From: Diplonema japonicum
Lineage: Eukaryota > Protista > Euglenozoa: Diplonemea
Length of the DNA: 64,000 nucleotides
Assembly (NCBI GenBank): GCA_964019335.1
Contig: OZ025761.1
Span: forward strand, 62,001 to 126,000
Direction: 5' to 3'
In this document: positions 12,404 through 64,000 of the stretch, in pieces
Layout: every line of letters starts with the position of its first letter
How positions within the stretch are numbered: position 1 is the stretch's first letter
The notes under the pieces: generated by a model
Seen by the model: the letters and a program-made list of their open reading frames with translations, nothing else
What the model was told of the DNA's origin: nothing
Database searches by the model: none
Made by a program: the position numbers and the translations under genes

Positions 12404-12450
<47 letters not shown>

Positions 12451-26946: not shown

Positions 26947-26978
<32 letters not shown>

Positions 26979-38430: not shown

Positions 38431-38436
38431 AAGAAG

Positions 38437-38478
<42 letters not shown>

Positions 38479-38604
38479 CTCATTGTTTTTGTTGTTGTTG
38501 TTGTCTCTCAGTACCTGTGTAACATCTTTTCTTGTAGACATCTGTTTATACGTTTGAACTCTGCAGCAAAAAAAAGGGGGGGGATGTGGTGTTGTGGTTG
38601 TATC

Positions 38605-38740
38605 TTGTCCAGTCTGGTTCAGTCCAGTCCAGTCTGGTCTGGTCTGGTCTGGTCCAGTCTGGTCAGTCTGGTCAGTCTGGCATAATTGGGTCGAAATTCA
38701 CACTGGATCTGGTCTGGTCTGGTCCAGTCTGGTCTAGTCC
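38605..38740 (+). repeat. (GTCTG/GTCCA)n microsatellite
   Basis: Two blocks of pentamer repeats. Confidence 0.85.
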
Positions 38741-45399: not shown

Positions 45400-47309
45400 A
45401 CCGAGCATTCCACGAGTTCCTTTGTGAGCGCGTCAACAAGAACTACGGCTGGGAGAAAGGGGAGCTCCAAAGTTTCTTTACCGAAGCAGGGAAGAACTAC
45501 AGAGCAGGCCGCGAACTTGACGAATGCTACCCGGATCTCGCGTATGTGGGACGTAAGGACCCCCGAAAGAGCACAGCCCTCCCCTCCGAACCGACGCAGA
45601 CAACACAAGAGTCCACCTCCACCGCTGACACGAGCTCGCAAAAGGAACCACCTCCACAACAGCCGCCCTCAACGGAAACGACACCAATGGAGACACCTAC
45701 ATCGGAATACCCCACGTCGCTACACCAGGAAAGTGGCGAAGGACGCGTAGGCCTCGAGTGTGGTTGGGCCGTGGTGAACTGGATCGCAGACTACGCAGAG
45801 CTGGCACGCATGCCGTTCGCAGAGATGCAGACAATCCAACACCACCTCTGTACCTCGGAGCTCGCCCTGCACACCGAGGGGCATGCGAAGGAGTACCAGC
45901 CGAACGAGAAAGGCGACTTCTCCCAAGATACCCTGTCCCTTGCCTGCCAAAAGATCCTTGGCGAAGAGGCCTCGCTGCAGAGCGTGGTCAAGAGCGGACG
46001 GTACCCAGTTCTGGTAATCGGCCCGCCGAAGGGCTCCAGGACGGGCCACTGGACTACAGCCATCAAAACCGGCAGGTCGTGGTACACCGTGATGGACACA
46101 GACAAGGAAGAACACCGTGTCAATGGACTGAGGCAGGTCCTACGTATGTATGACGAACAGAACATCCTGGGTATCACCGAAGAAAGCTGGGCCAGAGCAA
46201 GGACCATAAGGGAGCAGAACGGCGGCAGACCAAAAGCGTTCGACGTCCACGCTTGCATCAAGGGAGCGCAGGACGAGGTAATGCCACCGGTTTCAGGCCC
46301 CTGTTTGAGCCAGACCCCTGCAGCTAGCCTCACCCCCAATGATGACCCGGTCCCTTCACCTGGTCCGGACTCAGACGCTAATCCGGTCCACAGCATTGAC
46401 CCGACCCCCGTTGCAGACCCGGTCCATACATCTGGCCCGGTCTCCGTCATGGACCCGGCCCCGACGGCTAATCCGGTCGCGGACTCGGTCCCCGCGACTA
46501 AACCGGTCGCGGACACGGCCCCCGTCACGAACCCGGTCCCCGCGACTAGCCCAATCGCTGACCCGGTCCTCATCACAGACCCAGTTACCGCAGCTAGCCC
46601 GATCACGGACCCGGCCCTCGTCACGGACCCGACCCGAGCTAACCCAGTCACAGACACGGCCCCCGTCGCAGACCCGGTCCCCACAACCAGCCCAGTCGCT
46701 GACCCGGTCCCCGTCACGGACCCGGTCCCCGCATCTGGCCCGGTCGCAGACACGACCCACATCACAGACGCGATCCCCGAAACCAGCTTAGTCGTTGACC
46801 CGGTCCCTGCAAGTAACCCAGTCGCTGACCCGGTCCTCACCACAGACCCGGTCTCCGCGACTAACCCGGTCGCAGACACGGCCCCTGCCACAGATCCAGT
46901 CCCTGCAACCAGCCCAGTCGCTGACCCGGTCCCCGTCACAGACCCGGTCCCCACATCTGGCCCGGTCGCAGACACGACCCACATCACAGACGCGATCCCC
47001 GAAACCAGTTTGGTCGTTGACCCGGTCCCTACAAGTAACCCAGTCGCTGACCCGGTCCGCACCGCAGACCCGGTCTCCACGGCTAACCCGGTCGCAGACA
47101 CGGCCCCTGCCACAGATCCAGTCCCCGCAACCAGCCCAGTCGCTGACCCGGTCCCCGTCACAGACCCGGTCCCTGTCACGGACCCGGCCCCCACAACCAA
47201 CCCGGTTGGAGACACGGCCCCCATCACAGACCCGGTCCCCGCAGCCAGCCCAGTCGCTGACCCGGTCCCCGTCACGGATCCGGTCCCCGCATCTGCCCGG
47301 TCTCGATAG
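45390..47309 (+). CDS. PLE C-terminal region: Josephin-like cysteine protease + DPV-rich repeats
   Basis: LECGWAVVNW, GDFSQDTL, GHWTTAIKTGRSWYTVMDT; probably continuous with the RT before the deletion. Confidence 0.65.
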   Translation, partial: KLLNRAFHEFLCERVNKNYGWEKGELQSFFTEAGKNYRAGRELDECYPDLAYVGRKDPRKSTALPSEPTQTTQESTSTADTSSQKEPPPQQPPSTETTPMETPTSEYPTSLHQESGEGRVGLECGWAVVNWIADYAELARMPFAEMQTIQHHLCTSELALHTEGHAKEYQPNEKGDFSQDTLSLACQKILGEEASLQSVVKSGRYPVLVIGPPKGSRTGHWTTAIKTGRSWYTVMDTDKEEHRVNGLRQVLRMYDEQNILGITEESWARARTIREQNGGRPKAFDVHACIKGAQDEVMPPVSGPCLSQTPAASLTPNDDPVPSPGPDSDANPVHSIDPTPVADPVHTSGPVSVMDPAPTANPVADSVPATKPVADTAPVTNPVPATSPIADPVLITDPVTAASPITDPALVTDPTRANPVTDTAPVADPVPTTSPVADPVPVTDPVPASGPVADTTHITDAIPETSLVVDPVPASNPVADPVLTTDPVSATNPVADTAPATDPVPATSPVADPVPVTDPVPTSGPVADTTHITDAIPETSLVVDPVPTSNPVADPVRTADPVSTANPVADTAPATDPVPATSPVADPVPVTDPVPVTDPAPTTNPVGDTAPITDPVPAASPVADPVPVTDPVPASARSR

Positions 47310-47560
47310 TCCCTGACGACCCAGTGCCCACAACTGGCCCAGTCTACGCCACGGACCTAGTCAGTTCGCCTGGCCCGATCTCTGTCACGGACGCAGTCCC
47401 CACCACAGGCCCGGTCCACGCTTCTAGTCTGATCCCCTCCGCAGACCCGGTTCCAACACCAGGCGCAGCCTCCACCAGAGACCCGGTCCCCGCGTCTGAC
47501 CCGGTCCTCGCCTCGGACCCGTTACCCGAAGTTGATGCCCTCCCCGTTACAGACCCAGTC
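46340..47560 (+). repeat. Coding minisatellite (18-bp base unit; TDPVPA/ADPVPV)
   Basis: Recurrent GACCCGGTC at multiples of 18 bp, plus a higher-order ~216-bp duplication (DTTHITDAIPETSLVV twice). Confidence 0.9.
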
Positions 47561-48330
47561 CCTGTGCAGATGGACCTGTCTGAACCTCTGGGGCAGCATG
47601 GATCGACGACATGGGTGCAACCCGAGCCCTCAACGAAGGCGGTCGCCCCACCACCCCTCTTGACGACAGCGGAGCCCTGGGTGCCGTTAGCTCTGACGAC
47701 GATGTCGCAACGACAGATGCAAAGCAGTAGCAGGACTGCGTTAGGACGGGGCACTTCTACTTCTCCTCCTTCTTTTTCTGCTTCTTCTTCTTTTACGCGA
47801 ACAACGACGACTGTCCATCAGAGTCTGCTGTGGTCCGATGTCCCGGGGCACCAACGAGGTCGTGGGGGCATCACGAGAGGTCGCACGTCAAGCCCCGGAT
47901 CACAACCGAGACGCGCACACAGCGCAACGACCGCGTGTTTCCCTCACACCCCAGAACGATTCTCACCCCTGGCCGGTCTGTCGGCTACAGACGACCTGTA
48001 CATGCCGGAGCTGACACAGCACAGCAGAGACATGTACATGCTGGAGCCACCCGCGGATTTGACTGCTGCGACGGAACCTCCTCCTCCCCCACAGGGGGAC
48101 ATGTACATGCTGGAGCCACCACCCACAGAGTCGACGCAAACAGACGACGACCCCCATCCTCAGTCAGCGAGACCTGCCCCACGGGGGACCGATGAGGCAC
48201 AGAGAAATCTGAAGGTGGTCATAGACCTGACTGGCGACGACGACGACGACGACAAAGTCTCTGCCCCGACCTCGACCCCGCCATCGGAGACGGCGGAACC
48301 TGCGCCACGGACGGAGGAGCTGGAACTGGC

Positions 48331-49059
48331 ATGCCTCACTACCCACGACGGCGACGAAGCCCTGGCCCCACACTCAGCCCCAGCCCGGCCCCGCCCCTCG
48401 CAAGCCACCACAAGAAGAAGCGAAAGGGAGGCGCATGCCCGGACGTGTACCTTGGCCACGACACCAAGCTGGTAAGGACCAGCACAGATCGTGCACCAGC
48501 GCCACCTCTGCTCGTCAAATGGCGGTCCAAGAGCGCGAAGCGCAGGCAGTTGTGCGACGGACAAGCGGAGCCCGCAAAGAAGAAAGACCGCTTGGACCTC
48601 CTCAGGGCGAACCGACGGTCGGGCAAGGCCGCCGTTCACGCCCTGGCTGAAGAACATCGAGCGGGTCTGGAAGATAAGCTCTCCCACACGAAACTGGCGA
48701 CGGCCGGGATCGTCGAAGCGGAAGGGGAGTGGACGCCAGAAGCCATGATACGGGTCTGCAAACACGTGCTCGGCGAAGAGCCTAAAACCGCGAAGGAACT
48801 CGGGATTCACATGAAGTTTGTCCGGTTCGCCCTCATCCTGGACTTTGACAAGACGTGGATCATGGCCAGGTATGACTCGGAAGGCTGGAAGGCGAAGGGG
48901 GACGTCGAGAGACGGCAGCAGTTCACGCGGCACGGAGATATGAGAGCCTTGAAGGATCACTACTTCGTGGCCACTGACTGGCTGTTCTTCACCACGCTGC
49001 AGTGGCATAATGTGGGACAGCGCCACCCCCCAAGAACCACGAAGACCTTACGCAAGTAA
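48331..49059 (+). CDS. PLE 3'-terminal unknown domain (likely frameshifted continuation)
   Basis: Globular-looking WTPEAMIRVCKHVLGEEPKTA...ATDWLFFTT; a diverged homologue at ~61436-61710. Confidence 0.55.
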   Translation: MPHYPRRRRSPGPTLSPSPAPPLASHHKKKRKGGACPDVYLGHDTKLVRTSTDRAPAPPLLVKWRSKSAKRRQLCDGQAEPAKKKDRLDLLRANRRSGKAAVHALAEEHRAGLEDKLSHTKLATAGIVEAEGEWTPEAMIRVCKHVLGEEPKTAKELGIHMKFVRFALILDFDKTWIMARYDSEGWKAKGDVERRQQFTRHGDMRALKDHYFVATDWLFFTTLQWHNVGQRHPPRTTKTLRK

Positions 49060-49250: not shown

Positions 49251-49887
49251 TTTTATATTTTATAAGTACATATAACAATCGATTGAAAGAAGAAGAACGT
49301 TTACCAAGGTGTTGGTCACAACTGTGTCCATGTCTCCTTCCTGCTAGTGGAACGTAGGAGAAGCTACTGCTCAGCCGAGGAGCACCCCCTGTGAGCAAGT
49401 AGGTAGTTTGTGCTTCATTGCACGCTTAATGTCACCTAGTGTTGCAATCAAAGCCCCATTTTTATTGTTTTTTTTTTTTTTTTTATTGTCATGTTGCATG
49501 TTGACCTGCCCCCTTTTTCCTACTTTCCTCTCCGCTTTATTTTAATTTTGATATTTTCATTTTGTTTTCCTACATGTTTTTCGTAGTCAAAGAAAGTGTC
49601 CATCCCTGATCCCCAAGAGAGAGTGTACCATCCTGTTCCACGGAAACAGAGAACCTACCCCCACCACAGCAGCCGACCAATCAGATGCAAATTATATAAC
49701 AATCGATCGAAAACAGAAGAATAAGGAGACCTGGAAGCTTTTTCCTTCTATCCTCTCTGCTTTGTTTTACTTAAAAATCTTTTTTTTTCTTATTGTTTTC
49801 CTACATGTTTTTCGGTCAAACTATCCTACCTCTATCACAGGAACAACTTTTTGCAATAAACAAAAAGAGAAAATACAAGTAAAGAAA

Positions 49888-50970
49888 ATGAGCCTGACGG
49901 TGTTCATCAAGATAGAGAACAAGGAGATGCATGAAGTGGAGCTGGGAAGCCATGACACGGTGAAGGACCTGTACAGGAAGGCTGGGGAGGCTGCTGGGGT
50001 GGAGGAGAAGACTTTTCTTTTACACTTCGAAGGTGAGGAACTGGACGAGACTCTTGGTGGGAATGAGATACAGCACCTTGGGATGTGGGAGGGGTGTGAG
50101 CTCCTTCTCTGCTGCAATGTCTGCAACACGATGTGTGTCCTTTCACAGGAGCTGTCTTCAGAAGAGACAAGGAAGGCAATAGAACGGCGTTTGGAGGAGG
50201 ACCCTGGCCTTCTTCTTCAGGTGGAGGTATCGGGTGTGGACTGTCTTCGGCTTCACAGCCGCCTGGAGCACCTTCCTTTTGGCCTTCGTCACCTCCGAGT
50301 GACAGACCCCAAGCAGTGTGTGATCCATATTGGGGATGACTTCTTGGCTGAATGGGAGTCCCTTGTCACCCTTGACCTCGCCTCCCTTCAGAACGTTCAA
50401 GGAATTGGAGGGTGTTTTCTTTTCGGATGCAGGTCGTTGCAGGCGGTTGATCTCACTCCCTTTTACAATGTAACAAAGATTGGCAACTCTTTCCTTGCTC
50501 ACTGCGAATCCCTGACAGGGGTGGACCTGGGGCCCCTTCAGAACGTGATGGAGGTGGGTATCAGTTTCATGGATAATTGCAGGTCTCTGCAGACCCTTGA
50601 TGTGGGGCCCCTTCGAAATGTCACGGTGATTGATGAGAGGTTTCTCTGTTTTTGTACCTCCCTCACTTCTGTGGATCTCGGCCTTCCCAACACAGTGTCG
50701 GTGCATGCAGACTTTCTCAGCTGTTGCAGCTCTCTCACTTCTGTTGACCTCAGCGCGATGCAGAGCTTGACAAAGTTGGGGGATAATTTTCTTTTATGCT
50801 GCAGTTCTCTGACCACTGTTAACCTTGGGCATCTGAGGGAGAGGGTCACTTTTGTCGGGAGTAACTTCATGAACTGCTGTGACAACGTACCTTTACAGGA
50901 CTGTAGGCTGCTAAGGATGTCGAGTAGTGCTAAAAAGAGCACCTTTAGGAGTCGTTGTGTTGTGAGTTGA
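49888..50970 (+). CDS. Ubl-LRR protein, subfamily A, with C-terminal CaaX-like CVVS
   Basis: MSLTVFIKIENKEMHEVEL...; about seven LxxVDLxPLxNVxxIGxxFLxxC repeats; ends KKSTFRSRCVVS. Confidence 0.9.
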   Translation: MSLTVFIKIENKEMHEVELGSHDTVKDLYRKAGEAAGVEEKTFLLHFEGEELDETLGGNEIQHLGMWEGCELLLCCNVCNTMCVLSQELSSEETRKAIERRLEEDPGLLLQVEVSGVDCLRLHSRLEHLPFGLRHLRVTDPKQCVIHIGDDFLAEWESLVTLDLASLQNVQGIGGCFLFGCRSLQAVDLTPFYNVTKIGNSFLAHCESLTGVDLGPLQNVMEVGISFMDNCRSLQTLDVGPLRNVTVIDERFLCFCTSLTSVDLGLPNTVSVHADFLSCCSSLTSVDLSAMQSLTKLGDNFLLCCSSLTTVNLGHLRERVTFVGSNFMNCCDNVPLQDCRLLRMSSSAKKSTFRSRCVVS

Positions 50971-51575
50971 GATAGATGCTGCTGAGCCTGCTAGTGCCAC
51001 CCCCCAAATATGGGAAATTCCTGACCACCTATTTAATTATGAGCAGCTCATATACCGCACATTTGCAGGGTCTTACCTTATACAAGTTTTGCTTTGGGTC
51101 ACATCCAGCTCTCTCCCTCCTTCTCTCGATCATCTCTATGGTCCAGTATTTTCCGACCAGGCCCTCTTTTCTCCTTTTCCCTTTTCACTTCGTTCTGTTA
51201 TTTTCATTCCTCTTTCTGGCAACAGACTGATACAGGCCATGGCAGCAACCTCTGCTTAATTCTCAGGGCATCGGTCATTGATGTTGTCGCAAAAATCTCA
51301 TTATCTTTTCTGTGGAAAGAATTCTTTTGGGGAAACAAAAGGGGAAAAAAGGGACGTGTTGTTTAAAAAACAGAAACCCTGTAAATGAATTGTTATTGTT
51401 AAAAAGTGACAGCTTTCTTCTTCTTCTTCTTCTTCTCTATCTGCTTCATTTGACTTCATAAGCCTTCAAGACAAGCACACAGGGAAAATACATTAAAAAT
51501 AAAATTAAAAAAGCAAAAAAGGTGTGAATAAGAAACGAAAAAGAAAAGAACAATAGAATAAGAAAGAGAAAGAGA

Positions 51576-52439
51576 ATGACCAATGAAGAGGTGAACGATA
51601 TGACAGTGTTCGTGAAGACGGGAGGCGGGGTTCACAATGTGGAAGTGTCGGGGAAGGAGACGGTGGGGAGCCTGTACAAGAAGGCGGGGTGTGCTGCTCG
51701 TTTACTCGAAGGCAAGTTCAAACTGGTTTGGGAAGGAGACCTCCTTGACATGAACGGGGGTGAGGAGCTTCATTCACTTGGGCTTGTGGAGGGCTCCGTG
51801 GTCCATGTGGAGGCGAACAAGATGAGAACCGTTCAGCTGGAGGAGCTTGAGCGATCAGAAGTGGTTTCGGAGCTTGAGGGGCTTGTGACAGCTGACCCTG
51901 AGTTGGTTCTGGTGGTGGAGGTGGGGAACTCGCCAACTGTCGAAGTCTTGTCCATGAACAGCAAGGACCTTCCTTCTGGACTTCGGTTCCTCGTTGTCAC
52001 CGACTCCACAGGCTGTGTTACAAGGATAGACGCTCACTTTCTTGCATATTCCCACCACCTGATGTCTGTTGATCTCATCCTCCCCAATGTTTTCACCATT
52101 GCTAATAAGTTTTTATGTAGGTGCAAAAATCTAAAAACCATTGACTTGAATGCGATGACCAATCTTTCTGAAATTGGTTCTTCCTTCTTGTCTGGGTGCA
52201 CGAAACTAGAAACCATCGACTTGAATGCGATGGCCAATCTTAATTACATTGGCTCTTCCTTCTTGTATGGGTGTGCAAAACTAGAAACTATCGACTTGAA
52301 TGCGATGGCCAATATTTATACCATTGGTTCTCACTTCTTGAAAGGGTGCGAAAATCTAGAAACCATAGACTTGAGTGCAATTGCCAATCATCCTTCTGTT
52401 GGTGATTACTTGTCAAGGTGCAAAAACAAGACTGCATAA
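51576..52439 (+). CDS. Ubl-LRR protein, subfamily B
   Basis: MTVFVKTGGGVHNVEVSGKETVGSLYKK...KLVWEGDLL; 25-aa LETIDLNAMxNLxxIGxxFLxGC repeats. Confidence 0.9.
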   Translation: MTNEEVNDMTVFVKTGGGVHNVEVSGKETVGSLYKKAGCAARLLEGKFKLVWEGDLLDMNGGEELHSLGLVEGSVVHVEANKMRTVQLEELERSEVVSELEGLVTADPELVLVVEVGNSPTVEVLSMNSKDLPSGLRFLVVTDSTGCVTRIDAHFLAYSHHLMSVDLILPNVFTIANKFLCRCKNLKTIDLNAMTNLSEIGSSFLSGCTKLETIDLNAMANLNYIGSSFLYGCAKLETIDLNAMANIYTIGSHFLKGCENLETIDLSAIANHPSVGDYLSRCKNKTA

Positions 52440-53089
52440 GGTGCAACACAGCCTGATAAGTCCCAGGTACCTAGGGGTCGTTGTAAGGGACGAAACTGGG
52501 TCTGTGGATGGAGCACTCCAACACCATGATAGAAATACAGTTTTCTTCTTCAGTTTCTTTCCTTTAAAACAAAAATTAGTATTCTGATGCAATACGTTCT
52601 GCTTTGTTGTTCTTTTTGACCCCTCCCCTTTTTTATTTGGAGACCAATGTTTCCAACCTCCCTGTGGTGGTTTCTGGTAATTGTGGTTTGGAGAGACACA
52701 AGCGAAAGGGAAACTCGCGTTAAGCCGTACATGTGGGGAAACCTGGACGGGGTGGAGAGCCCCTATGCGTGGCGCCGGTTAGCATTGCCCTCAACGGAGA
52801 GTCCCTTATCCCATTACATCCAACAAGGATCGAGCCAGTGAAGCAAGCCCCCCACAGCATACTCTCCAGTTGGTGTTTAATTGCTTCTGTGGCCTCTCCC
52901 TATTTCAATTTCCAAGCTTTCTTTACCTCTCCACTTTTACTTTCTACAGACCACAGGGGACTTGGGAGGGGTGGCCGCTGTGTCACATACTGCATGGCAC
53001 CACTAAAATCGAGACAACTTTTTAACCCCTCCCTTTTTGATGTTCTTTTTTAATACAACAAGACATAAATGTTGTGTTAGTTTAGTTCC

Positions 53090-53430
53090 TTTTTTTTTTT
53101 CAAGGTGGTGGGGATAACATGGAAATATAAGAAGTACATCAGATGTGTTGTTCGCTGTTGACCTCCTCGTCGGTCATCACCAGTAGCGCCCGAGTGGAAG
53201 AACGTAACGCAGATGCTCAGGGTGACGAACAGGCAGCAAACTGCACGAGCGCAGAATCTTGGTTAACCGGGACGCCCCGGCTAGGGTTGAGCACACCGCA
53301 CGCATTAAGGACACGACGTGGAACGCAGAAGAAGCTACTGCTTGGCCGAGGAGCGCCCCCTGTAATCAAGTAGGTAGTTCGTGCTTCATTGCACGCTTAA
53401 CGCCACCTAGTGTTGCAATCAAAGCCCCAT
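53090..53430 (-). repeat. Poly(A)-tailed SINE-like repeat (CpG-rich copy)
   Basis: Reverse complement of 11172-11505, without that copy's internal deletion. Confidence 0.8.
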
Positions 53431-54566
53431 TTTTTTTTTTTTTTTTTTTTTTTTTTATTAGCACAATTCCCAGGCACCTTCTGACCTGCAGGGACCTTCC
53501 CAGGCACCTTCTAAAGCCAGTCCCAGGTAACAGGTATTTTTGAAGTAGGGGGGTCCTAGAGCTTTTTCCTTCATTCCTCTGCTTTGTTTTATTTTTGATA
53601 TTCTCATTTTGTTTTCCTACATGTTTTTCGTAGTCAAAGAAAGTGTCCATCCCTGATCCCCAAGAGAGAGTGTACCATCCTGTTTCTCGCGGAAACAGAG
53701 AACCTACCCCCCACCACAATCAGATGCAGCAGATGCAGCACAAATTTCCCCCCCACCCCAATAACGTGATTAGAAAAAAAAAAAGCTGTAATTAAAAAAA
53801 GAAAAATGTTTTAGAAGGGAAAAAAAAAAAGAAAAAAAAAGAAGAAAAAAGAGGCATTGGGTTGACCCGGAATGTGTAAGACGGTGGGATTTATTTTTTT
53901 ATTTTTCGTTTCTCTCTTCTTCTCAGGGCAAGGGTTGGTTATTTTTATAACAATCTTTTTTTTTTCCTACCCCTCTTCTTCTTTTTTTTGCACAAGGGCG
54001 CACACACTACGATCCATCGACAAAGGCGGTAATCGGATAGAACAGGAGTGCAATATTTGCGTCACCGAAGACCAAGCATGACCTAGAGGCGTTGAAAGGA
54101 CAATGGGCAAGAGAACGAAGAGAAAAAGCGGCCAGGCTGGGGAGAAGGCCGGCAAGACCACCAAAAGAGGAGAAACCGCTGCTGAAAGGGGATAGGTGCA
54201 GGTAGACGATGAGAACAAGGGGGCGTCTCACAAAGACTTCCTTTAACGCATATTTATTTAGTTTCTCTTTTCTTCTCAAATGCAAGGGTTGGTTATTTCT
54301 TAAACAATAGGATGGGATGGAACAGAAGGCCAGTTTTTACATCAGAGAAAACCAAAGACCTTAAGAAACTGGGCAGGAAGTGGCAAGAAGAAAGAGAAGA
54401 TACTTTAAGAAAGGCAACACAGCCAAAAAAAAGAAAGAAAGGCCCCAGAATTTTATATTTGTACACCTGTACCTTCAACACGAATAAAGGGGAAAAATAT
54501 GTGGAATTTTATTGATTTCCCCCGTTTATAACTTTCTTACCCCCCCCCCCCCCCCGAACATGGAGA

Positions 54567-55706
54567 ATGAATCGCCTTTTACTGCAAAGACACTGCAACA
54601 AAATGAACGATATGACAGTGTTCGTGAAGACGGGAGGCGGGGTTCACGATGTGGAAGTGTCGGGGAAGGAGACGGTGGGGAGCCTGTACAAGAAGGCGGG
54701 GTGTGCTGCTCGTTTACTCGAAGGCAAGTTCAAACTGGTTTGGGAAGGAGACCTCCTTGACATGAACGGGGGTGAGGAGCTTCATTCACTTGGGCTTGTG
54801 GAGGGCTCCGTGGTCCATGTGGAGGCGAACAAGATGAGAACCGTTCAGCTGGAGGAGCTTGAGCGATCAGAAGTGGTTTCGGAGCTTGAGGGGCTTGTGA
54901 CAGCTGACCCTGAGCTGGTTCTGGTGGTGGAGGTGGGGAACTTGCCAACTGTCGAAGTCTTGTCAATGAGACGTTCTGTCCTTCCTTCTGGACTTCGGTT
55001 CCTCGTTGTCACCGACTCCACAGGCTGTGTTACAAGGATAGACCATGGGTTTCTGCGAAACAGCAAAGACCTGACGTCCATTGATCTCATCCTCCCCAAT
55101 GTTTCCACCATTGGTCATGACTTTTTATTAAGCTGTGATACATTAGAAACCATCAACTTGAATGCGATGACCAATCTTTATTCTATTGGTAATGACTTCT
55201 TGTATTGGTGCAGCAGGCTAGTAACCATCAATTTAAGTTCTATGACCAATCTTTATTCTATTGGTGATAACTTCTTGTCTGGGTGCGACAAACTAGAAAC
55301 CATCGACTTGAGTTCGATGACCAATCTTTATTCCATTGATAAAGGCTTCTTGCGTTGGTGCAGCAGGCTAGAAACCATTGACTTGAGTTCGATGACCAAT
55401 CTTAATTCCATTGGTGATTGCTTCTTGTATGGGTGCAACGAACTGGAAACCATCGACTTGAGTTCAATGATCAATATTTGTTCCATCGAATTTAGCTTCT
55501 TGTCTGATTGTAAGAAACTAAGGACCATCGAGTTGAGTTCGATGACCAATCTTTCTTACATTGGTTATTGTTTTTTGTCTGGATGCGAAAAGCTAGAAAC
55601 AATTGTTTTGAGAGGAGGCACTGATACTTTTAACAGGCTCTTAAAGGCTGAGATACCATCTGGGGTAAGTTTACAGACCCCCCCCCCCCCCCCCTCCTTT
55701 AGTTAA
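54567..55706 (+). CDS. Ubl-LRR protein, subfamily B
   Basis: Same N-terminus as 51576 with more LRRs; true start may be 54603 or 54612. Confidence 0.9.
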   Translation: MNRLLLQRHCNKMNDMTVFVKTGGGVHDVEVSGKETVGSLYKKAGCAARLLEGKFKLVWEGDLLDMNGGEELHSLGLVEGSVVHVEANKMRTVQLEELERSEVVSELEGLVTADPELVLVVEVGNLPTVEVLSMRRSVLPSGLRFLVVTDSTGCVTRIDHGFLRNSKDLTSIDLILPNVSTIGHDFLLSCDTLETINLNAMTNLYSIGNDFLYWCSRLVTINLSSMTNLYSIGDNFLSGCDKLETIDLSSMTNLYSIDKGFLRWCSRLETIDLSSMTNLNSIGDCFLYGCNELETIDLSSMINICSIEFSFLSDCKKLRTIELSSMTNLSYIGYCFLSGCEKLETIVLRGGTDTFNRLLKAEIPSGVSLQTPPPPPSFS

Positions 55707-55774
55707 AATATAGCGCCTCTTTTCAATATTCTTTCCTTTTTTGATTTTCAGAATTCAAGCCAGTGGATCACGCC

Positions 55775-55974
55775 NNNNNNNNNNNNNNNNNNNNNNNNNN
55801 NNNNNNNNNNNNNNNNNNNNNNNNNNNNNNNNNNNNNNNNNNNNNNNNNNNNNNNNNNNNNNNNNNNNNNNNNNNNNNNNNNNNNNNNNNNNNNNNNNNN
55901 NNNNNNNNNNNNNNNNNNNNNNNNNNNNNNNNNNNNNNNNNNNNNNNNNNNNNNNNNNNNNNNNNNNNNNNNNN
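55775..55974. other. Assembly gap (200 N)
   Basis: Run of N. Confidence 1.
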
Positions 55975-56348
55975 TTCTGTGTTTTGCGCGGCATTTCTGA
56001 TGAATATCTATCATCTTCCCGAGGTTAGGATGGTAAGTTTGTTTTTGCAAATATTTCAGGTACCAAACCGTGGTCACTGTTTTCAAAAATACAGATAAAG
56101 CATTACGCTCCATATTCGCTAAGTGACCCACCAGAACCCCAGAGTTTTGAAGAGCTAAAAAAATTTCTAATTGCTTTTTCTAGGGCTGGAATGGATTTAT
56201 TTGCGTCCGGACGCCCAATGTTCGACATATGGAATTTTTTTTTGTAATAAAATCTTTTTTTGGTGATTTGCCTTACTTTGTACTATACAAAATGAAGCTC
56301 CGGTGGAAAAAACACGGCACAAGTGGGGTTCGAACCCTGATGAAAAAA

Positions 56349-56431
56349 CCACTGTATCGGGATTCGAACCCGCGACTCCTGGAACAAGGGGGCCTGACAG
56401 GTGAGCACGGTAACCACTCTACCACACAGGA
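56349..56431 (-). pseudogene. tRNA-Asp(GTC)-like sequence (pseudogene or SINE head)
   Basis: TGGTAGAGTGG (A box), CTGTCA anticodon loop, GGGTTCGAATCCC (B box); acceptor CTGTGT/ATACAG; anticodon stem does not pair well. Confidence 0.55.
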
Positions 56432-56557
56432 ATTCAAAACTCTGACCCCCCATCTTTACTCACGCATCCAGCTTAGTGGATCTGGATGTGAATTTGGAAA
56501 TAGCCGTTCGCCGAAGCTAGTCGTGGCCCGATAAATCCGTTGTATCCTGACTAGTCA

Positions 56558-56650
56558 CGTATCTCTCTAGACTGGGTTCTGGCTTAGAGGCGTTCAGCCA
56601 TAATCCATCCAGTGGTAGCATCACGGCACTGTCAACCGTAGATACCAGGG
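56558..56650 (-). rRNA. LSU rRNA 3'-domain fragment
   Basis: Minus strand GCTACCACTGGATGGATTATGGCTGAACGCCTCTAAGCCAGAACCC matches the conserved eukaryotic LSU GGATTATGRCTGAACGCCTCTAAG segment; isolated fragment only. Confidence 0.8.
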
Positions 56651-58467
56651 TGGAGTAGGTCCCTTCTTTTCACACCAGATATCCTTGCGATACACACTCA
56701 CGACATGCCTCAGCCCATCAACACTGTGATGAAATAAACACAAGATGAGCTAAAGAGGTTCCTGTTCTGGAACGTCCTTGTCTATTATCTCTACTTATCT
56801 ACCCCTTTCCCAGTTTTCGAAGTCTAGTACGAGTTATTGTGGTGACTGTCGTCTTCCTCGGTCCGTCGTACTACTTCAGCTTCCTGAGCTACCACTCAGG
56901 TGGTGCGCATGAGCGTTTCCTTCCGTTATCTGTTCCAGGGGTGTGTCATGTACGTTTCTAGTACACTGAAGAGTAGGTCACCAGAAAAATCTGTTGTTTC
57001 TTCAGACGCTTGATCCACCCGAAGTAGAACAGAAGGAGGAGGAAGGGGGGGGGGGAGATACTGATGTCTTCTTCTTTACTTTCTGTTGTCGCTACTGTCT
57101 TTGCTGCTACTGCTGGTGCTGTTGCTGCTGTTACTGTTGTTGCTGCTGCGTTGGGGAGGTTGTCCATGTCCTCTGTTGTGCCTTGGGTGGCCCTCCTCTG
57201 CTTCCTCAGTCTTGTGCTTCTTGTACAAGATGAGGCTGGGGTGCCATCCTTTGTTTTTGCCTGCTTATGGCACTTCCACTCCGTCTGTTCTGAGATCTCA
57301 CTTCTTGCCCTCTTTTGTGTCGTGGACCCGGTAGTGGAGCTCCTTGTGGCTGTACTCCGCTATCGCGATCCTGTCCATCTGGAGTCCTCGTTGTCTGAGG
57401 CTCTCTGCTGGCTGGAAGGGCTTGCTTTGGTCTTTCCCTTCGAGTTGCCCGTGTGCTCTCAGGAGTAGGAAGTATTCTCCGGTCGTCGTCACTGCTTGTT
57501 TCATAGTCTCCGTTCCGTCGTCAGGCTGGTCATCAAACCAGGGCACGCGGGTCAAGGATCTTCCAACGCAAACGTGACCGGTGATCGGTGTAATTCCCAC
57601 ATAAGTACCTTCCAAGCAGAAATAACTTCTGCCCCAAAGGCAACGTCACTTTCAAATGACTATGCTATTTGGACTGTACGTTGCCCTGTGGTGGACGGCG
57701 TAGACGCGCATCTGTCTCTTCAACTATAAACTCCCCTATGGAACCCTCTTTGACCTTCTCGTCATCTCCACCCATTTGTATTTGGTGATTACGGCCGAAG
57801 TGCAGAGGACAGGACTGTTATGCTTACTGACTAACAACTAACAATCTTACAATGTTAAGAGCTGTCCTTCCCTCAAAACTGCACTTTTCTTCAACTAGAC
57901 TCCCACAAGCTTACGAAAAGCTTTTGCGGAAACACCAGTTCACTGCCGTTTCTCCCCTGTGGTGAGCCTAAAAAAATTCGCTGGAGTGGGGCTTGAACCC
58001 GCTTCGCACAGGGCAAAGCCCCCCCAACTAGACTACTACACCTTCGAAAATACTTTCGGCTGAGGAAGATGCTGGCTTCTGGGATCGAACCCTGTTAACC
58101 ATGTTTTTTCAAAGGGAAAAGTGCCCAGTTGCAAAAGTTTGGCAAAAATGGCCAAAACTCAAAATGGCGACTTCCAAGGTCATTTTGGTTGGCCCCCAAT
58201 ATTTTTTTTTTTTTGGAAAGTTTTTTTTGGAACTTCCTTGGAACTCACCGTTCTTTCATGTTCGACATATGGATTTTTTGGAAAAAAAAATTCAATGAAC
58301 CTTTGGGCATTTTTGACATTTTTTCCCCTATAGCCCCCTATAACCCCTTTGGGACATAGGGTGGGTCACTTAGCGAATATGGAGCGTAAAACAAGTGCTC
58401 AGAAATGCTCTAATCCGGCGAATTTTGATTTTTTGGTTAATTTGGAGGGTATTGGGCGGTTTTTTAA

Positions 58468-60643
58468 CCATTAAAGGACGGGGGTTTTTGGGCAAAAAAA
58501 AGGTCACCATCGACTTTTTTATTTTCTAAAATTAAAACATCCTCGAGCATGCAACCATAGAACGACGCTTGTGTAAAAGAAAATACATCACCCAGGAGGG
58601 ACAAAAAACACCCCCAGACGCCCCTCAAAGGCCCTGGGAAGTGAATAGAATAAGGAATTGAAGTGAAATTTATTGTAAAACCCCACCCATAGGTTAGACA
58701 CTTCCTTACTTTTTTCGCTTGGGCCTCAGAGTGCTAGGGGGGGTTTTGCTTTTGGGACTTGGCTCAGATGACGACCTGGGGAGAAGGGTATGTGTTTGGA
58801 GACGCTGGTACCTTAGGTGTTCCTTCGGTGTGGCCGGGCCTCCAGAGGGGGTAGATTGGGGTGGGTAAACCACTGGTTCGTGATAGTCCGCAAAGCAAGC
58901 TGGGCACAGATGCACGTTACAAGCCTTGCAGATGAAGATAGTTTGCACCCGGACCCCCGAAACACGCATGTGGTGTGTGCATTGTCTTGCTGCATCCAGT
59001 TTTTTGGACCAGTGACCTTTGGTGAAGTCGCGCCTGGCATCTTCCCTGGGCCCCTCGGTCCCCATTTCAGAACGGGTGCTTGCTGGGCGGTTGTTTCCGG
59101 ACTGGCGCATAACAGTCGAAAAGCTGTTGTCGCTCATCGCGAACCCGTTTTTGGGCCTGCCTGGGCCTACTTGCTTCTCACTGGGGCAAGATTAGGTACA
59201 TTCTGGCGGTTTTCTTCGGATTGTTACCACCATTGACTGGACTTTCCTCGGATTGTTTCCACCACAAACCCGATTCCCACATCTGTTGTACAAGGGTAAC
59301 GCCAGTATAGAAGTTATCGATGCCGGGGTACAAGGGGAACGGCCATCCACCAGGTGGACACGAATAGTGGCATCGACAAGTCACGTGGGGTGCGCTTTCA
59401 GACTGAGCACGACGTTCACTTCATGTCAAGCAAGACGCCATTGAAGGCACCGCAGGAGATACGGGAGAACGTTGTAAGAGCTTTCATTGTCGCGCTCGAG
59501 CTGCAGGACAAGAAGCTCGAAGCAGAGCTCCGCCGCCGAGACATTCTGGTCGCCATGTTGTCCTTTTTTGGCATCATAAGCATTGGTGCTTCTGCAGTGG
59601 TACACCAATCCTGTACGCGAGTCAGGGCTCCCAAACACCAGCACCCCCCTACAATGACCTCGATCCTTCACCAAATGGGAAGGTAATATGCCAAGTGCTG
59701 AGATACCTCACATCGGGGTCCACAGTGCTGTGTTTGATTGCTTTTTCACGCTTTTACAATGGTATTAGCACTGCGGACAGTAGATCGACAAGTTGAACAC
59801 GACCCTGTGTCAGATCCTGTCCGGTGCACAGCCTCACCTGTCCTCTTTGCAGGCTGGAATACTCTGAAGCGATGCCTACCGTGTGACTTGATCATACTCT
59901 CATCAATGATCGATTCTCCGGGGGAATAGTGTTGCAGACAGGTAGGGGAGCAAGAATCTTATTTTTTGCAACCTGTCTGTCTCTTCACCCCTCCAAAATG
60001 CAACGACCGCTGTAAGCGCAAAAAGCAGTAACGTTTCATTACACTTGCCAAAAAAAGGTGTGGCGAGGGCACAAATGGTCGGCCAGTAATCTTTTATGCC
60101 AGCCTTGCGGATGATGTCCATGAGCACCCACAAGGCCAGAAACTGATAGATATCGTCCACAGTGAAGTCAAAGTCGGGGTTGTGGTACTTGCAAACGGTG
60201 CAAAGAGATTTCACAAACCCCATTGAGATGAACAGCTTGGAAATCCTTGATGCACTCATGTGGGAAAAGGGTGATTTCTGCCCCCCCTGTGCCCTGTCAC
60301 TTCTTACGCGTAACCTGCGTAATATCGCTCTCCCAGGGCATATTTTCACTCTTCTCGTCACTACTGGCGCTAGGTGAGGTCCCATCGTCAGTGAGAATGT
60401 CCCCTTAGGTATTTCCGAACTCGTTTGAATCAGTACTGCTCATATGAGCTTTCGTGCCACCAAAAACTGGTTTCGAGGGTGTTTTTGGAGGTTAATCTAG
60501 GGGCCAAAAGTGATTTTCGATGGAAAAGAAATCGCGGAACTAGGTCATTCTGCGCAAGGGTAAGGGTCTATGGTACTTAAAATGCCTATACAAAAATTCT
60601 AATTTTTTGATCGCTAGATATCTAGCGCTTCGTCCTTTAATGG
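58468..60643 (-). mobile_element. piggyBac-like transposon with decayed transposase
   Basis: TTAA TSD (58464-58467, 60644-60647); 13-bp TIR CCATTAAAGGACG; DNFYT motif, IKDYW, CKACNVHLCPACFADYH. Confidence 0.92.
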
Positions 60644-60693
60644 TTAAAAACTTTTTTTTTTCACGTTTAACTACGTTTTTTAGGACCATGTGA

Positions 60694-60783
60694 CCCCCCT
60701 AGGCATAGTGGTGAGACGACTTGCACCAAATTCTCGCATGCGAGAATTTGGTGTGAGTCGTCTCACCACTATGCCTAGGGGGG
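60694..60783. repeat. 90-bp spacerless palindrome
   Basis: Centre GCA|TGC at 60738/60739; 45-bp arms with 2 mismatches. Confidence 0.9.
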
Positions 60784-61260
60784 GGGGGGGGGGGGGGGAG
60801 AGGCAGCTATTAACACACACACACACCAGGTCAAACTGCCCTGGACTATGCACGGGCAAAGGGGCATCAAGATATCGTTGCCTTGCTAGAAGCTGCTTGA
60901 AAAATGCAGCAACAAAGGGGCTTAGAACTCTACAACGGGGCGCAAGGCGAAGTGGGCATGTCTTCCGCTCAAAGAACAATGAGAGCCTGTTGTCCAGCCT
61001 ATAGGAATCTTCTTGCGCAAAGTTAGGCCTCAGCAATCCTGAAGTTTATGCGTTGCACACGTTTCGTCGAAGCTTTGCTACTGAGGCCTAAGCCTCAGTA
61101 CAAAGCTTCGACAAAAGACTTCCTTTTTTCTTTTCCCTTCCATCCTTTGTAGTAGCAGTCGTACAAAATAATTTATTTGATAAAAGTCACGTCCAACAAC
61201 TTTCGCAACAAACAAAACAAAACAAAAAAGAGAGTTACAAGAAATAAAAAAAAATAAAAA

Positions 61261-61710
61261 ATGAGCCCGACGGTGTTCGTTAAGATGGAAGATGCGTTCA
61301 GAAGGTGAAGAACTGAGACAGCACCTTGGGATGTGGGAGGGGCTCCGCAACAAGCTCGAGCAGGCAGAACAGGAGGACGGCACGAGGGGCGCAGGCATCC
61401 TGATCGAACACGCGGGTGGCACCGTTGAACTGATCAAGGGTCTGGAGGATACCCTCCCACACAAAACTGGCGACGCGCCGGGGTTGTCTAAGCGGTGAGG
61501 GACGTGGAGTGGACGTCAGAAGCCATAATACGAGTCTGCAAGCACACACTCGACGAGGAGCCTAAAACCGCGGAGGAGCTCGTGGATCATGGCCAGCGAA
61601 GGGGGACGTCGTCGAGAGACAGCGACAGCACACACGACATGGTGATAGAAGAGCCTTATAAAGATCACTGCTCCATGGCGACTGACTGGCTGTTCTTCAC
61701 CACGCGAACT
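61261..61710 (+). pseudogene. Collapsed Ubl gene start joined to a diverged PLE 3' domain
   Basis: 61261-61341 resembles pieces of 49888-50093; ~61436-61710 resembles 48663-48995. Confidence 0.7.
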
Positions 61711-62116
61711 GAGCAGGGGTGTGTGTGTACGACAGCTACCAGGCAGAGAAAAAATGCAAAAAGAATTGCTCGTAAGTGCCCAAAACCGGGCGGAATGTTG
61801 AATTGTCTTTTTCTTTCTTTTTACTTTTTGAAGAAAACCAGTGACTGTATGTGAGCGTCTCGAGACACTTCCAACCCACCTAGTGGGTGCGGCCTTAGCA
61901 AGTCGAAAAGGAAGCGGAATTTTAAAAAAAAAAAAAAAAGAAAAAAAAAAAAAAAAAAAGTGACTGTAAATAAATGAATTGTTATTGCTAAAAAGAGGCA
62001 GCTTTCTTCTTCTTCTATCTGCTTCTTCTTTCTTCATTTGACTTCATAAGCCTTCAAGACAAGCACACAGAGAAAAAAAAAGGGGGGAGTGAATAAGAAA
62101 CGAAAAAGAAAAGAAC

Positions 62117-63220
62117 ATGAATAGAAAGAGTAAGAGATCAGATGAAGAGGTGAACGATATGACAGTGTTCGTGAAGACGGGAGGCGGGGTTCACGATGTG
62201 GAAGTGTCGGGGAAGGAGACGGTGGGGAGCCTGTACAAGAAGGCGGGGTGTGCTGCTCGTTTACTCGAAGGCAAGTTCAAACTGGTTTGGGAAGGAGACC
62301 TCCTTGACATGAACGGGGGTGAGGAGCTTCATTCACTTGGGCTTGTGGAGGGCTCCGTGGTCCATGTGGAGGCGAACAAGATGAGAACTGTTCAGCTGGA
62401 GGAGCTTGAGAGATCAGAAGTGGTTTCGGAGCTTGAGGGGCTTGTGACAGCTGACCCTGAGCTGGTTCTGGTGGTGGAGGTGGGGAACTCGCCAACTGTT
62501 GAAGTCTTGTCCATGAACAGGAGGGTCCTTCCTTCTGGACTTCGGTTCCTCGTTGTCACCGACTCCACAGGCTGTGTTACAAGGATTGACGCTCACTTTC
62601 TTGAAGGTTCCCACCACCTGATGTCTGTTGCTCTCATCCTCCCCAATGTTTTCACCATTGATAGTGGCTTTTTATGTGGGTGTACAGATCTAGAAACCAT
62701 CAACTTGAATGCGATGACCAATCTTTATTCCATTGGTTCTCACTTCTTGTATGAGTGCGAAAAACTAAAAGCTATCAACTTGAGTTCGATGACCAATCTT
62801 AATTCCATTAGTTCCTGCTTCTTATATGGGTGCACAACACTAGAAACCATCGACTTGAACTTGACCAATCTTTCTTCCATTGGTTCTGGGTTCTTGGTCG
62901 GGTGTAAACAACTAGAAACCATAGACTTGAGTTCGATGACCAATCTTAATTCCATTGGTGATGACTTCTTGTCGGGGTGCAAAAATCTAAAAACCATAGA
63001 CTTGAGTTCGATAACGAATATGTATTCCATTGGCTCTGACTTCTTGCTTGAATGCACAAATCTAGAAACCATCAACTTGAATGCGATGACCAATATTGGT
63101 TACATTGGTCCTGGCTTCTTGAAAGGGTGCGAAAATCTAAAAACCATAGACTTGAGCGCAATTTCCACGCACCTTCTGACCCGCAGGGACGTTCCCAGGC
63201 ACCTTCAGCATCCCAGGTAA
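62117..63220 (+). CDS. Ubl-LRR protein, subfamily B (C-terminus from a YR repeat)
   Basis: Same N-terminus and about eight LRRs; the last ~17 codons match YR family 2 repeat B sequence. Confidence 0.85.
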   Translation: MNRKSKRSDEEVNDMTVFVKTGGGVHDVEVSGKETVGSLYKKAGCAARLLEGKFKLVWEGDLLDMNGGEELHSLGLVEGSVVHVEANKMRTVQLEELERSEVVSELEGLVTADPELVLVVEVGNSPTVEVLSMNRRVLPSGLRFLVVTDSTGCVTRIDAHFLEGSHHLMSVALILPNVFTIDSGFLCGCTDLETINLNAMTNLYSIGSHFLYECEKLKAINLSSMTNLNSISSCFLYGCTTLETIDLNLTNLSSIGSGFLVGCKQLETIDLSSMTNLNSIGDDFLSGCKNLKTIDLSSITNMYSIGSDFLLECTNLETINLNAMTNIGYIGPGFLKGCENLKTIDLSAISTHLLTRRDVPRHLQHPR

Positions 63221-63376: not shown

Positions 63377-63675
63377 GGGCACACCGAACAGGAACTGGGA
63401 ATCACCTGATTCCAGCAGAAACTAGGAAGTCGGTACACTCGTTGCGTACCCTGGGGCTCCACAGCCATTCCATCATTGGATACTCCACTCGTCCAGCCTT
63501 CGCGTCCCCGAAGGCAACCCACCCGATCCTAGAGGAGCACCTGCGAACTCATTGCATCCTCAACAACTCGCTAGTTGGTTTCACGCCCAAGCTGCTGAAT
63601 AGATACCACGACAGGCCTAAGGCACTACCACAACAGAAGGGATCAAATCAGGTTCCCTTCAGAGACATCTTTTAT
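63377..63675 (+). mobile_element. 3' fragment of the non-LTR family at 5806-10829
   Basis: HLIPAETRKSVHSLRTLGLHS...FTPKLL...QKGSN, then CAGGTTCCCT..AGACATCTTTT. Confidence 0.9.
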
Positions 63676-64000
63676 TCAAGCGTCCTGCCACGCACCGCAG
63701 GTACCCTTAAATGTCTCTCTTTTTTTTTTATTTTGTTTTCTTACTTGTTTTTCGTAGTCAAAAGAAAGTGTCCATCCCTGATCCCCAAGAGAGAGTGTAC
63801 CATCCTGTTTCTCGCGGAAACAGAGAACCTACCACCACAGCAGCCGACCGATCAGATGCAGCAGCAGTGGGAATAAAAAAAAGAAATCCCCCCCCCCCCC
63901 CCCAAATAAGATTTCCCTCACCCCAAAACAAGATTGGAAACGAAAAGTTGTAATTAAAAAAAAAGAAAAATGTTTTAGAAGAAAATATAAAAAAAAAAAA

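Follow-up and report, generated by a model that had tools for sequence, protein, structure and literature searches.

How free-living protists recognize intracellular bacteria and viruses is a largely open question, and a cluster of genes in Diplonema japonicum that join a ubiquitin-like (Ubl) domain to leucine-rich repeats (LRRs) raises it directly: are the products variable intracellular receptors, and to what would the Ubl connect them? The window analysed here is the whole 64,000-nucleotide stretch of contig OZ025761.1 (GCA_964019335.1) from position 62,001 to 126,000, from a group that PMC10161547 places among the most abundant marine microeukaryotes. Overall, sequence and predicted models lead us to favour, with a probability of about one half, the reading that the family is a birth-and-death set of cytosol-facing, compartment-targeted variable receptors. 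The first-pass annotation had listed at least nine members or relics. All of these loci were recovered, the one at 61261 only as a short subfamily A relic, and an additional relic at 5584–5754 (minus strand) brings the number of family loci to ten, namely six open Ubl-LRR frames and four broken copies (detected by tblastn, self-blastn and a Ubl HMM, and by DNA match in the case of 61261).

Subfamily A is represented by the gene at 49888–50970 (plus strand; ORF, Pfam and predicted model), whose 360 aa comprise the Ubl (about residues 1–78), a cap, a TpLRR array, a basic tail and the CaaX box CVVS, and by an open frame at 1–684 (minus strand; ORF) that runs off the window and whose full-length form, P0002, has 376 aa and ends in a basic stretch followed by CIVC. 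The open frames of subfamily B lie at 51576–52439 (plus strand, 287 aa, without a CaaX box; ORF, Pfam and self-blastn), 31028–31891 (minus strand, 287 aa; ORF, Pfam and self-blastn), 54567–55706 (plus strand, an ORF of 379 aa; ORF, Pfam and predicted model) and 62117–63220 (plus strand, 367 aa; ORF and Pfam). The first two are duplicate sisters, a 2.26 kb segment containing 51576 being duplicated at 30295–32544 (inverted, 95%). In 54567 the Ubl begins at the ATG at 54612 and the LRR array is the longest; in 62117 an unrelated repeat, found also at about 53460–53535, replaces the last repeat and the cap near 63165. The broken subfamily B copy at 28971–29769 (minus strand; tblastn and alignment) lacks one base at codon 31, a deletion that is either real or an assembly error, and its 3' end is joined at 28970 to the RT region of a retroelement. 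The subfamily A relic at about 1770–2280 (minus strand; tblastn and self-blastn) has lost its start and contains an internal duplication and deletions, with 1914–2186 being 95.7% identical to 49956–50231, and the relic at 5584–5754 (also tblastn and self-blastn) keeps the 5' flank and the first Ubl helix and adjoins a LINE end. The heavily deleted 5' end of a subfamily A gene at 61261–61345 (plus strand) gave no match by tblastn or with the Ubl HMM and was recognized from a 35-column DNA match to subfamily A (score 52; 200 shuffles scored 33 at most). LINE, DIRS-like, Penelope-like and piggyBac-like elements surround the cluster, and summed contig depth over the subfamily B N-terminus is far above that of unique DNA, depth not being equal to copy number.

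Both subfamilies are predicted to fold into a beta-grasp Ubl followed by a cap and a BspA/TpLRR solenoid, so that the predicted structures bear out the N-terminal beta-grasp domain proposed earlier. The predicted Ubl matches the Dsk2 UBL, ubiquitin and ISG15 (Z about 12, rmsd 1.2–1.9 Å over 69–79 residues) and, taken with Ddi2, the UBLs of the shuttle proteins (Dsk2 and Ddi2, Z about 12, rmsd about 1.5), and the predicted LRR domain matches the TpLRR structure 6MLX (Z 19.3–19.4, rmsd 2.9 over about 200 residues). Pfam LRR_5 is above its gathering score in five of the six window frames (51.7–80.6 bits, cut-off 27.7); the partial frame at 1–684 scores 23.7 bits and its full form P0002 63.8 bits. 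Pfam ubiquitin does not reach its gathering score in any window member, and F-box or BTB gave no Pfam match at E <= 0.1 in the six window frames. According to Pfam and the models the Ubl, cap and LRRs account for the whole chain, which has no C-terminal nuclease, NTPase or toxin domain. The ORFs are uninterrupted, without an exon-per-repeat structure, and the number of regular 25 aa units varies, as had been claimed; four to seven of them follow the first irregular repeats. A terminal GG, likewise said to be lacking, is absent after the Ubl in the window members; of 35 aligned Ubls, two are directly followed by GG, neither of them from the window. A head-to-tail self-association of Ubl and cap (a PB1-like idea) received a complex prediction score of 0.01, which counts neither way. 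The BspA/TpLRR repeat type and the C-terminal CaaX box are features that the first-pass annotation overlooked.

The C-termini differ between members. The CaaX boxes of 49888 and P0002, which have no counterpart in subfamily B, are a putative prenylation signal; a cysteine at position -4 is found in 12 of 38 relatives, an enrichment gauged against cysteine frequency only and not against a diplonemid proteome background. Further relatives carry NLS-like KR-rich tails or membrane tails. These tails bear on the unlikely alternative of a role beyond the cytosol, in which the products would be adhesins on the cell surface, would recognize prey or self, or would be exported as effectors, the Ubl then serving for export in the way proposed for the header of Crinkler proteins. 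The TpLRR structural matches are indeed bacterial surface proteins, Entamoeba BspA proteins are described as reaching the surface without a signal peptide, some of them with a CaaX box (PMC5349171, PMC2843621), and Ubl headers are proposed in PMC5289972 to aid translocation. However, the models agree with the earlier claim of no signal peptide, since the Ubl fold starts at residue 1–2 with no extension ahead of it, and a hydrophobicity scan (not SignalP) found no window above 1.5 at the N-terminus of 37 of 38 relatives; prenylation is not described as an outer-face anchor in the source text, and the KR-rich tails of relatives suggest nuclear import. The same NLS-like tails would suit an intragenomic arms race, in which a constant effector domain and a variable repeat array bind proteins encoded by mobile elements of the same genome, and the location of the cluster among such elements points in this direction too; we nevertheless hold it to be quite improbable, because expanding families may often lie in element-rich regions anyway and CaaX-bearing membrane members fit less well.

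Transcription was traced for the gene at 49888. An AG trans-splice acceptor preceded by a pyrimidine tract lies at 49839–49840 (plus strand), and a contig from run X7 matches 49840–49982 with no mismatching letter and has 20 loose spliced-leader-like letters ahead of the match, so that at least one copy is spliced-leader trans-spliced and not all copies are untranscribed. Where the source of a relative is named, it is a Diplonema transcript (EukProt records), and family members occur also in D. ambulator; the family tree is a quick version with a weak backbone. A D. papillatum match (P0008, 'putative kinesin') was dropped as a relative, its similarity running only via short repeats. None of 79 pattern matches in a viral scan and none of 498 in a metagenome scan was a relative, the viral structure matches were LRR-only or Ubl-only and lacked the joint architecture, and a GTDB scan returned 20 generic bacterial BspA loci (20–42% identity), none of them titled Holosporales. 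A literature search found no paper joining Diplonema with BspA, and searches among papers on diplonemids and leucine-rich repeats brought up nothing on a Ubl-LRR family, which the supplements of PMC10161547 may list.

Copies of subfamily B differ by about 1% in the Ubl and cap, silent sites included (Ubl dN 0.012, dS 0.030), and by 15–23% in the LRRs. In four copies this conversion island shows 3–5 differences in 336–339 nt against 62–94 in 408–411 nt, and the 5' flanks are unrelated between lineages. Uniformity that extends to silent sites, set between divergent LRRs and divergent flanks, suggests that the constancy of the subfamily B N-terminus is largely a product of gene conversion. The near-identity had been put at the first ~130 aa; it holds for about codons 1–119, with variation setting in from codons 120–123. 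The patch shuffling that had been read within the LRRs did not reach significance: the cited patches follow the majority tree except 'RR.VLPSG', common to 62117 and 54567, which rests on one nucleotide (nt 368). A PHI-like test for LRR mosaicism gave p values of 0.08–0.37 (LRR sites only) and 0.12–0.26 (one site per codon), and the lowest p among 12 MaxChi tests without the hypervariable codons was 0.067. Nearest-neighbour repeats hint at exchange and tandem duplication, short of proof.

Codon models (our own GY94 code, with NEB) applied to codons 114–250 of five genes indicate that LRR codons are under positive selection, and these sites are thus not simply neutral or purifying. The comparison of M1a with M2a gave an LRT of 37.5 on the best tree (range 37.5–54.5 over three trees), with an omega2 of 6.8 on 18% of sites, and that of M8a with M8 an LRT of 37.3, of 16.1 (p = 3e-4) when double and triple changes were allowed and of 29.9 without the broken copy. 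The maximum LRT in null simulations with mosaic trees (n = 52) was 10.0, tracts from unsampled distant paralogues lying outside the simulated model. By counting, dN/dS was 0.11 for scaffold, 0.61 for concave-exposed and 1.65 (CI 1.06–2.71) for all exposed positions, and the ratio was 2.8 for the hypervariable class, which was chosen post hoc. Amino-acid change is in excess at repeat positions 1, 16, 20, 23 and 24, and by counting also at 15 and 19. Aromatic residues are frequent at the selected sites, which the DSSP strings of the models, and not coordinates, place away from the usual concave strand; diversification off the concave strand, if true, would be unusual among LRR receptors. Aromatics occupy positions 16/19/20/23/24 in 21 of 100 cases in the window, against 0 of 80 at concave positions 4/5/7/9, and in two ENA clades the same comparison gave 87/320 vs 0/256 and 47/255 vs 0/204, counts that overstate significance because repeat units are not independent. 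A second radiation, in another genome, has a similar pattern; for exposed positions only, the variability profile correlated weakly with those of the ENA clades, at Spearman 0.43 (p 0.10) and 0.28 (p 0.29). Neutral turnover without an arms race, in which copies in an unstable region duplicate and convert one another while constraint on the exposed LRR residues is relaxed, would account for four of the ten loci being broken and one more having a rearranged tail, for an N-terminus kept constant by conversion and for an overall LRR dN/dS of about 1 (M0 0.98). It appears very improbable, however, given that models capping omega at 1 were rejected under four variants, that the scaffold is under purifying selection and that separate radiations have aromatics at matching repeat positions.

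The Ubl surface bears on what the receptor would be connected to. UBL shuttles of the Rad23, Dsk2 and Ddi type dock on the proteasome through a Leu8/Ile44/Val70-type hydrophobic patch with basic surroundings, and UBX/UBXL adaptors bind Cdc48 with an FPR/YPP-type beta3-beta4 loop. Among the 35 aligned Ubls of the family, none has all three patch positions hydrophobic and three have two; all 35 are acidic (net charge -2 to -17), and the beta3-beta4 loop reads [FWY]-E-G (F/W/Y in 30, E in 26 and G in 26 of the 35) and is not of the UBX type. The earlier proposal, in which foreign proteins caught by the LRR are passed by the Ubl straight to proteasome or Cdc48 and degraded, finds no support here, and canonical routing by either path is doubtful because the patch and the UBX loop are absent and the Ubl is acidic. 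The predicted fold ties with the UBLs of Dsk2, Ddi2 and BAG1, and there are weak UN_NPL4 Pfam matches (E 0.014 in window frames, E 0.0016 in P0042); a common fold does not show function, however, and with non-canonical proteasome sites in mind we leave direct degradation a small but appreciable chance.

Since the predicted beta-grasp domain, positive selection and trans-splicing all stand, the variable intracellular receptor of the first-pass annotation gains support, which the delivery to proteasome or Cdc48 does not. In the receptor reading that we favour, the LRR solenoid would bind fast-changing foreign proteins, probably by its second strand and the following turns and not by the concave T-x-D strand, and the near-constant domain of predicted ubiquitin fold would engage a single conserved partner in the host, its acidic, non-Ile44 surface perhaps recruiting a host effector by other means than the classic Rpn1/Rpn10/Rpn13 or Cdc48 N-domain sites. 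Gene conversion would hold Ubl and cap uniform, with repeat gain, loss and point change diversifying the binder, and the tails would send members to membranes (prenylation), to the nucleus (KR-rich, in relatives) or to the cytosol. The driver may be intracellular bacteria or viruses, for example the cytoplasmic Holosporaceae symbionts of D. japonicum, which is described as having two symbionts, the bacteria lying free in the cytoplasm (10.1101/719211). The same source reports most Diplonema species to be without symbionts, and since family members occur also in D. ambulator, symbionts may not be a sufficient explanation for it. More tentatively, free-living diplonemids might own an adaptive-style intracellular immune repertoire, in which a bacterial-type TpLRR binder, possibly acquired from Holosporales-like symbionts, diversifies off its concave face, is joined by gene conversion to a standard ubiquitin-fold connector and polices symbionts and viruses compartment by compartment, its tail being exchangeable between a prenyl group, a membrane anchor, a nuclear signal and none. 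For intracellular recognition in protists the family supplies named and expressed candidates that show positive selection, a predicted binding surface and tails for different compartments, which makes the question directly testable.

Several known systems share parts of this design. The BspA-like/TpLRR proteins of Entamoeba and Trichomonas vaginalis are likewise an expanded eukaryotic LRR_5 family with members described as lacking a signal peptide, and in Entamoeba histolytica, with 116 such proteins, some carry a C-terminal CaaX box as subfamily A does (PMC5349171, PMC2843621); the Diplonema family differs in its N-terminal Ubl, its 25 aa repeat and its free-living marine host, and the word 'ubiquitin' is absent from the text of the Trichomonas BspA paper. 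Nematode F-box and MATH-BTB adaptors, proposed to defend against foreign proteins, are similar in birth-and-death evolution and in coupling a constant N-terminal module to a positively selected binding domain (PMC4334554), whereas the Diplonema window members have neither F-box nor BTB and lack the Ile44 patch. The LRR-ROC-COR (ROCO) candidate immune receptors of brown algae are also intracellular LRR arrays under diversifying selection in a lineage that is neither animal nor plant, and are described as diversified by repeat shuffling (PMC11378527); unlike them, the Diplonema genes have no GTPase and uninterrupted ORFs, and repeat class and tails differ. Crinkler/CR effectors resemble the family in that recombination takes place behind an N-terminal Ubl that stays constant (PMC5289972), but the Diplonema C-terminus is a predicted binder and not a nuclease or toxin domain. 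On the bacterial side, Parachlamydiaceae are reported to have expanded F-box/BTB effectors (PMC4209131), and two Holosporales LRR proteins (CAO5680543.1 and MFN9000557.1, one with an F-box-like domain) have LRR_5 and match the cap and first repeats, but are bacterial and without a Ubl. Arabidopsis LRR-UBQ At2g30105, listed with unknown function in PMC4672068 and likened here by description only, has a Ubl and a repeat domain in one chain. ESM Atlas clusters (scores 0.81–0.84, leads only) join ubiquitin to DUF285 repeats and not to LRR_5, and together with At2g30105 they mean that the class of Ubl-plus-repeat architectures is not new. Membrane-anchored ubiquitin-fold (MUB/UBL3) proteins combine a Ubl with a CaaX box, as subfamily A does, and of the two it is the Diplonema family that places an LRR array between them.

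The first-pass annotation had proposed a family of proteins that join an N-terminal ubiquitin-like (Ubl) beta-grasp domain to leucine-rich repeats (LRRs), and this family proved to be real. All six long Ubl-LRR open reading frames (1-684, 31028, 49888, 51576, 54567 and 62117, named by window coordinates) were confirmed, and tblastn with three members together with a Ubl HMM built from relatives recovered these six and broken copies at ~1770-2280, 5584-5754 and 28971-29769. With a fourth broken copy at 61261, for which a short DNA match is the sole evidence (score 52 against a maximum of 33 in 200 shuffles), the family totals 10 loci in the window, of which 6 are open and 4 broken. Genes 31028 and 51576 belong to an inverted duplication of 2.26 kb (95% identity); copy 28971 has lost one base and is joined to a retroelement RT region, and the 3' end of 62117 derives from an unrelated repeat. 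The deletion junction of the 1770-2280 relic (~1895-1925, minus strand) recurs as a loose end of 228 letters in a contig of sequencing run X6 (at 50215), so assembly error alone does not account for the relic.

LRR_5 scored above and ubiquitin below the Pfam cut-off, and the predicted models of 49888 (pLDDT 92.6) and 54567 (pLDDT 91.2) both show a beta-grasp from residue 1-2, then a short cap, then a solenoid. Structural matches of the predicted Ubl are the Dsk2 UBL, ubiquitin and ISG15 (Z about 12, rmsd about 1.5); that of the predicted solenoid is TpLRR 6MLX (Z 19.3-19.4). The repeat unit is 25 aa long, with L3, I6, L8, I17, F21, L22 and C25 invariant in 20 units of subfamily B (31028, 51576, 54567, 62117 and 28971); in the models, DSSP places strands at its positions 5-7 and 16-17. 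In subfamily A, for instance in 49888, the C-terminus is a CaaX box. Of the 38 Ubl-LRR relatives picked from 81 proteins after polyubiquitins, LRR-only matches and three fragments were dropped, Cys stands at -4 in 12 (3.5% expected from Cys frequency, p 4e-9); two carry a hydrophobic tail anchor, and KR-rich tails occur in several. That these proteins act at the surface or after export seems unlikely.

Silent sites diverge by 0.03-0.05 across Ubl and cap but by 0.26 in the LRRs, and 51576, 54567, 62117 and 28971 show 3-5 differences in 336-339 N-terminal nt versus 62-94 in the 408-411 nt downstream. The 5' flanks group the copies as (51576, 31028, 62117) versus (54567, 28971), which is also the best LRR tree. 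Since the uniform tract sits between divergent flanks and divergent LRRs, its constancy is the hallmark of gene conversion. In agreement with this, MaxChi groups 51576 with 31028, its duplicate, at 1 of the 12 informative sites that precede nt 269 and at 60 of the 67 that follow (0/1000 permutations), and 9 of 30 triples gave p < 0.05. The constant N-terminus and variable LRRs described by the first-pass annotation thus stand; its shuffling of patches within the LRR array is not supported, as recombination tests on the window's B copies did not demonstrate exchange there.

The same annotation's variable repeats are under positive selection. Codon models (our own GY94 implementation, 5 genes, 137 codons) favoured M2a over M1a (LRT 37.5 with the best tree, 18% of sites having omega 6.8) and M8 over M8a (37.3). 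The LRT was 16.1 with double and triple changes allowed and 29.9 without the broken copy, and null simulations with mosaic trees reached a maximum of 10.0 (n=52); neutral turnover is accordingly a most improbable account of the family. Eight sites had NEB > 0.95: these are codon 122 and residues at positions 1, 16, 20, 23 and 24 of the unit, with none at concave positions 4, 5, 7 or 9. Counting dN/dS was 0.11 at scaffold positions, 0.61 at exposed concave ones and 1.65 (1.06-2.71) over all that are exposed; a hypervariable class defined post hoc reached 2.83. Direct comparison of 17 repeat units gave ratios > 2 at positions 1, 15, 16, 19, 20 and 23. A second radiation consists of ENA proteins with an identical layout, sets of which (7, 5 and 4 proteins) come from contigs of equal length; they form one clade in a quick tree, with near-constant Ubl, varying repeat number and CaaX or KR-rich tails. 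Variability in clade 1 of this radiation is highest at positions 24, 20, 19, 23 and 1; between window and ENA clades, the correlation at exposed positions only was not significant (p 0.10 and 0.29). Aromatic residues concentrate at 16/19/20/23/24, with nearly none at 4/5/7/9, in 4 of 4 sets, whose units are not independent. In this radiation (P0034, P0057, P0080, P0083-P0111) CaaX and KR-rich tails share one stem after the last repeat, and a deletion or a change of frame may connect the two.

In a source look-up of 23 relatives, the Ubl-LRR proteins with a named source were EukProt Trinity transcripts from Diplonema japonicum (8 plus one cluster member) and D. ambulator (2); relatives with LRRs alone came from Flectonema neradi and Holosporales. 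P0002, the complete form of gene 1-684, is a EukProt entry. One contig of run X7 matches 49840-49982 exactly and extends 20 letters further at its 5' end; the junction is an AG that follows a pyrimidine tract. Within these 20 letters is a motif shown in the sequence of a euglenozoan SL RNA (available text of PMC7859406), and SL addition is described as common to all Euglenozoa (PMC10161547, likewise). On this one contig, 49888 is a processed mRNA. X6 and X10 contigs end near 51380, where X4 continues, a weak hint of the transcript's 3' end. B-type starts behind different 5' flanks occur as loose ends in runs X5, X6, X7 and X10, so further paralogues exist; no run contig matched to the window showed transcription of its B copies. 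Overall, the family is real, positively selected and expressed in at least one copy.

A Ubl-ankyrin fusion (4281-4961, minus strand; Pfam) gives a weak match to the family HMM (E 5e-5), so the fusion of a Ubl to repeats may be more widespread here. An abundant ~340 bp repeat (53090-53431; also at 11172-11504, 37258-39812 and elsewhere) is a possible trans-spliced SINE-like element, given that run X11 shows a spliced-leader-like loose end at 53104. Three stretches (16008-18585, 25435-28970 and 40004-42352) contain DIRS-like elements, whose frames are gag-like, recombinase-like (by motif) and RT (RVT_1 E 6e-7 for 17680); 26854-28970 and 40004-42105 are 94% identical. A single-ORF LINE of 1546 aa lies at 5899-10539 (minus strand; RVT_1 E 1e-23), a LINE 3' fragment directly after gene 62117 (63382-63752), and a piggyBac-like relic at 58706-60385 (minus strand; weak zf-Tnp_2 and DDE matches). 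At 44074-48475 (plus strand), an RT frame without Pfam match, presumably Penelope-like by its motif, precedes a proline/threonine repeat frame. Conflict with such mobile elements is a very unlikely function for the family. Also present are a 998 bp duplicate (12448-13445 and 14975-15969, 99%), whose copies specify an identical protein of 296 aa that contains two hydrophobic segments and matches no Pfam family; a pair of isolated LSU rRNA fragments (11835-11930 and, on the minus strand, 56558-56694; RF02543); a Nudix protein (19108-20310, minus strand; Pfam); a membrane protein without Pfam match (21210-22886, minus strand) that presumably resembles a nucleotide cyclase; and a frameshifted Ig/cadherin-like repeat gene (32658-35942, plus strand; weak Big_9).

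Shuttle UBLs dock through a Leu8/Ile44/Val70 patch in basic surroundings, and UBX domains rely on a loop of FPR type. In the profile-to-ubiquitin alignment, these three positions are E/H/C in 49888 and G/V/E in subfamily B and are all hydrophobic in none of 35 Ubls; net charge is acidic in 35 of 35, and the beta3-beta4 loop is [FWY]-E-G. This speaks against canonical docking and is the chief finding against the annotated role as adaptors routing foreign proteins to degradation: direct routing to the proteasome or Cdc48 is doubtful, although non-canonical docking would still be compatible. We instead favour, at a probability of about 0.5, cytosol-facing variable receptors, in which the LRR array would bind the ligand, the Ubl would serve as a standard connector to a partner and the tails would act as addresses. 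The two symbionts of D. japonicum, free in the cytoplasm and encoding LRR proteins beside type VI secretion genes, would be a plausible driver, although most Diplonema species have none (available text of 10.1101/719211); D. ambulator also carries family members. Holosporales LRR_5 proteins (P0024, P0068 and other LRR-only matches), one with an F-box-like domain, align with the cap and first repeats, a possible lead for host-symbiont transfer.

The family belongs to the TpLRR/BspA type. The literature searched, with most subscription papers and supplements outside it, described no diplonemid family that combines a Ubl and TpLRR with switchable tails, a conversion island and off-concave selection. 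Its elements have precedents in the source texts available: a Ubl-LRR fusion in Arabidopsis At2g30105 and ESM Atlas leads, and BspA with CaaX in Entamoeba BspA proteins. As far as the available texts describe them, nematode F-box/BTB adaptors (PMC4334554) and algal ROCO receptors (PMC11378527) evolve in a like manner, but the diplonemid family is a member of neither.
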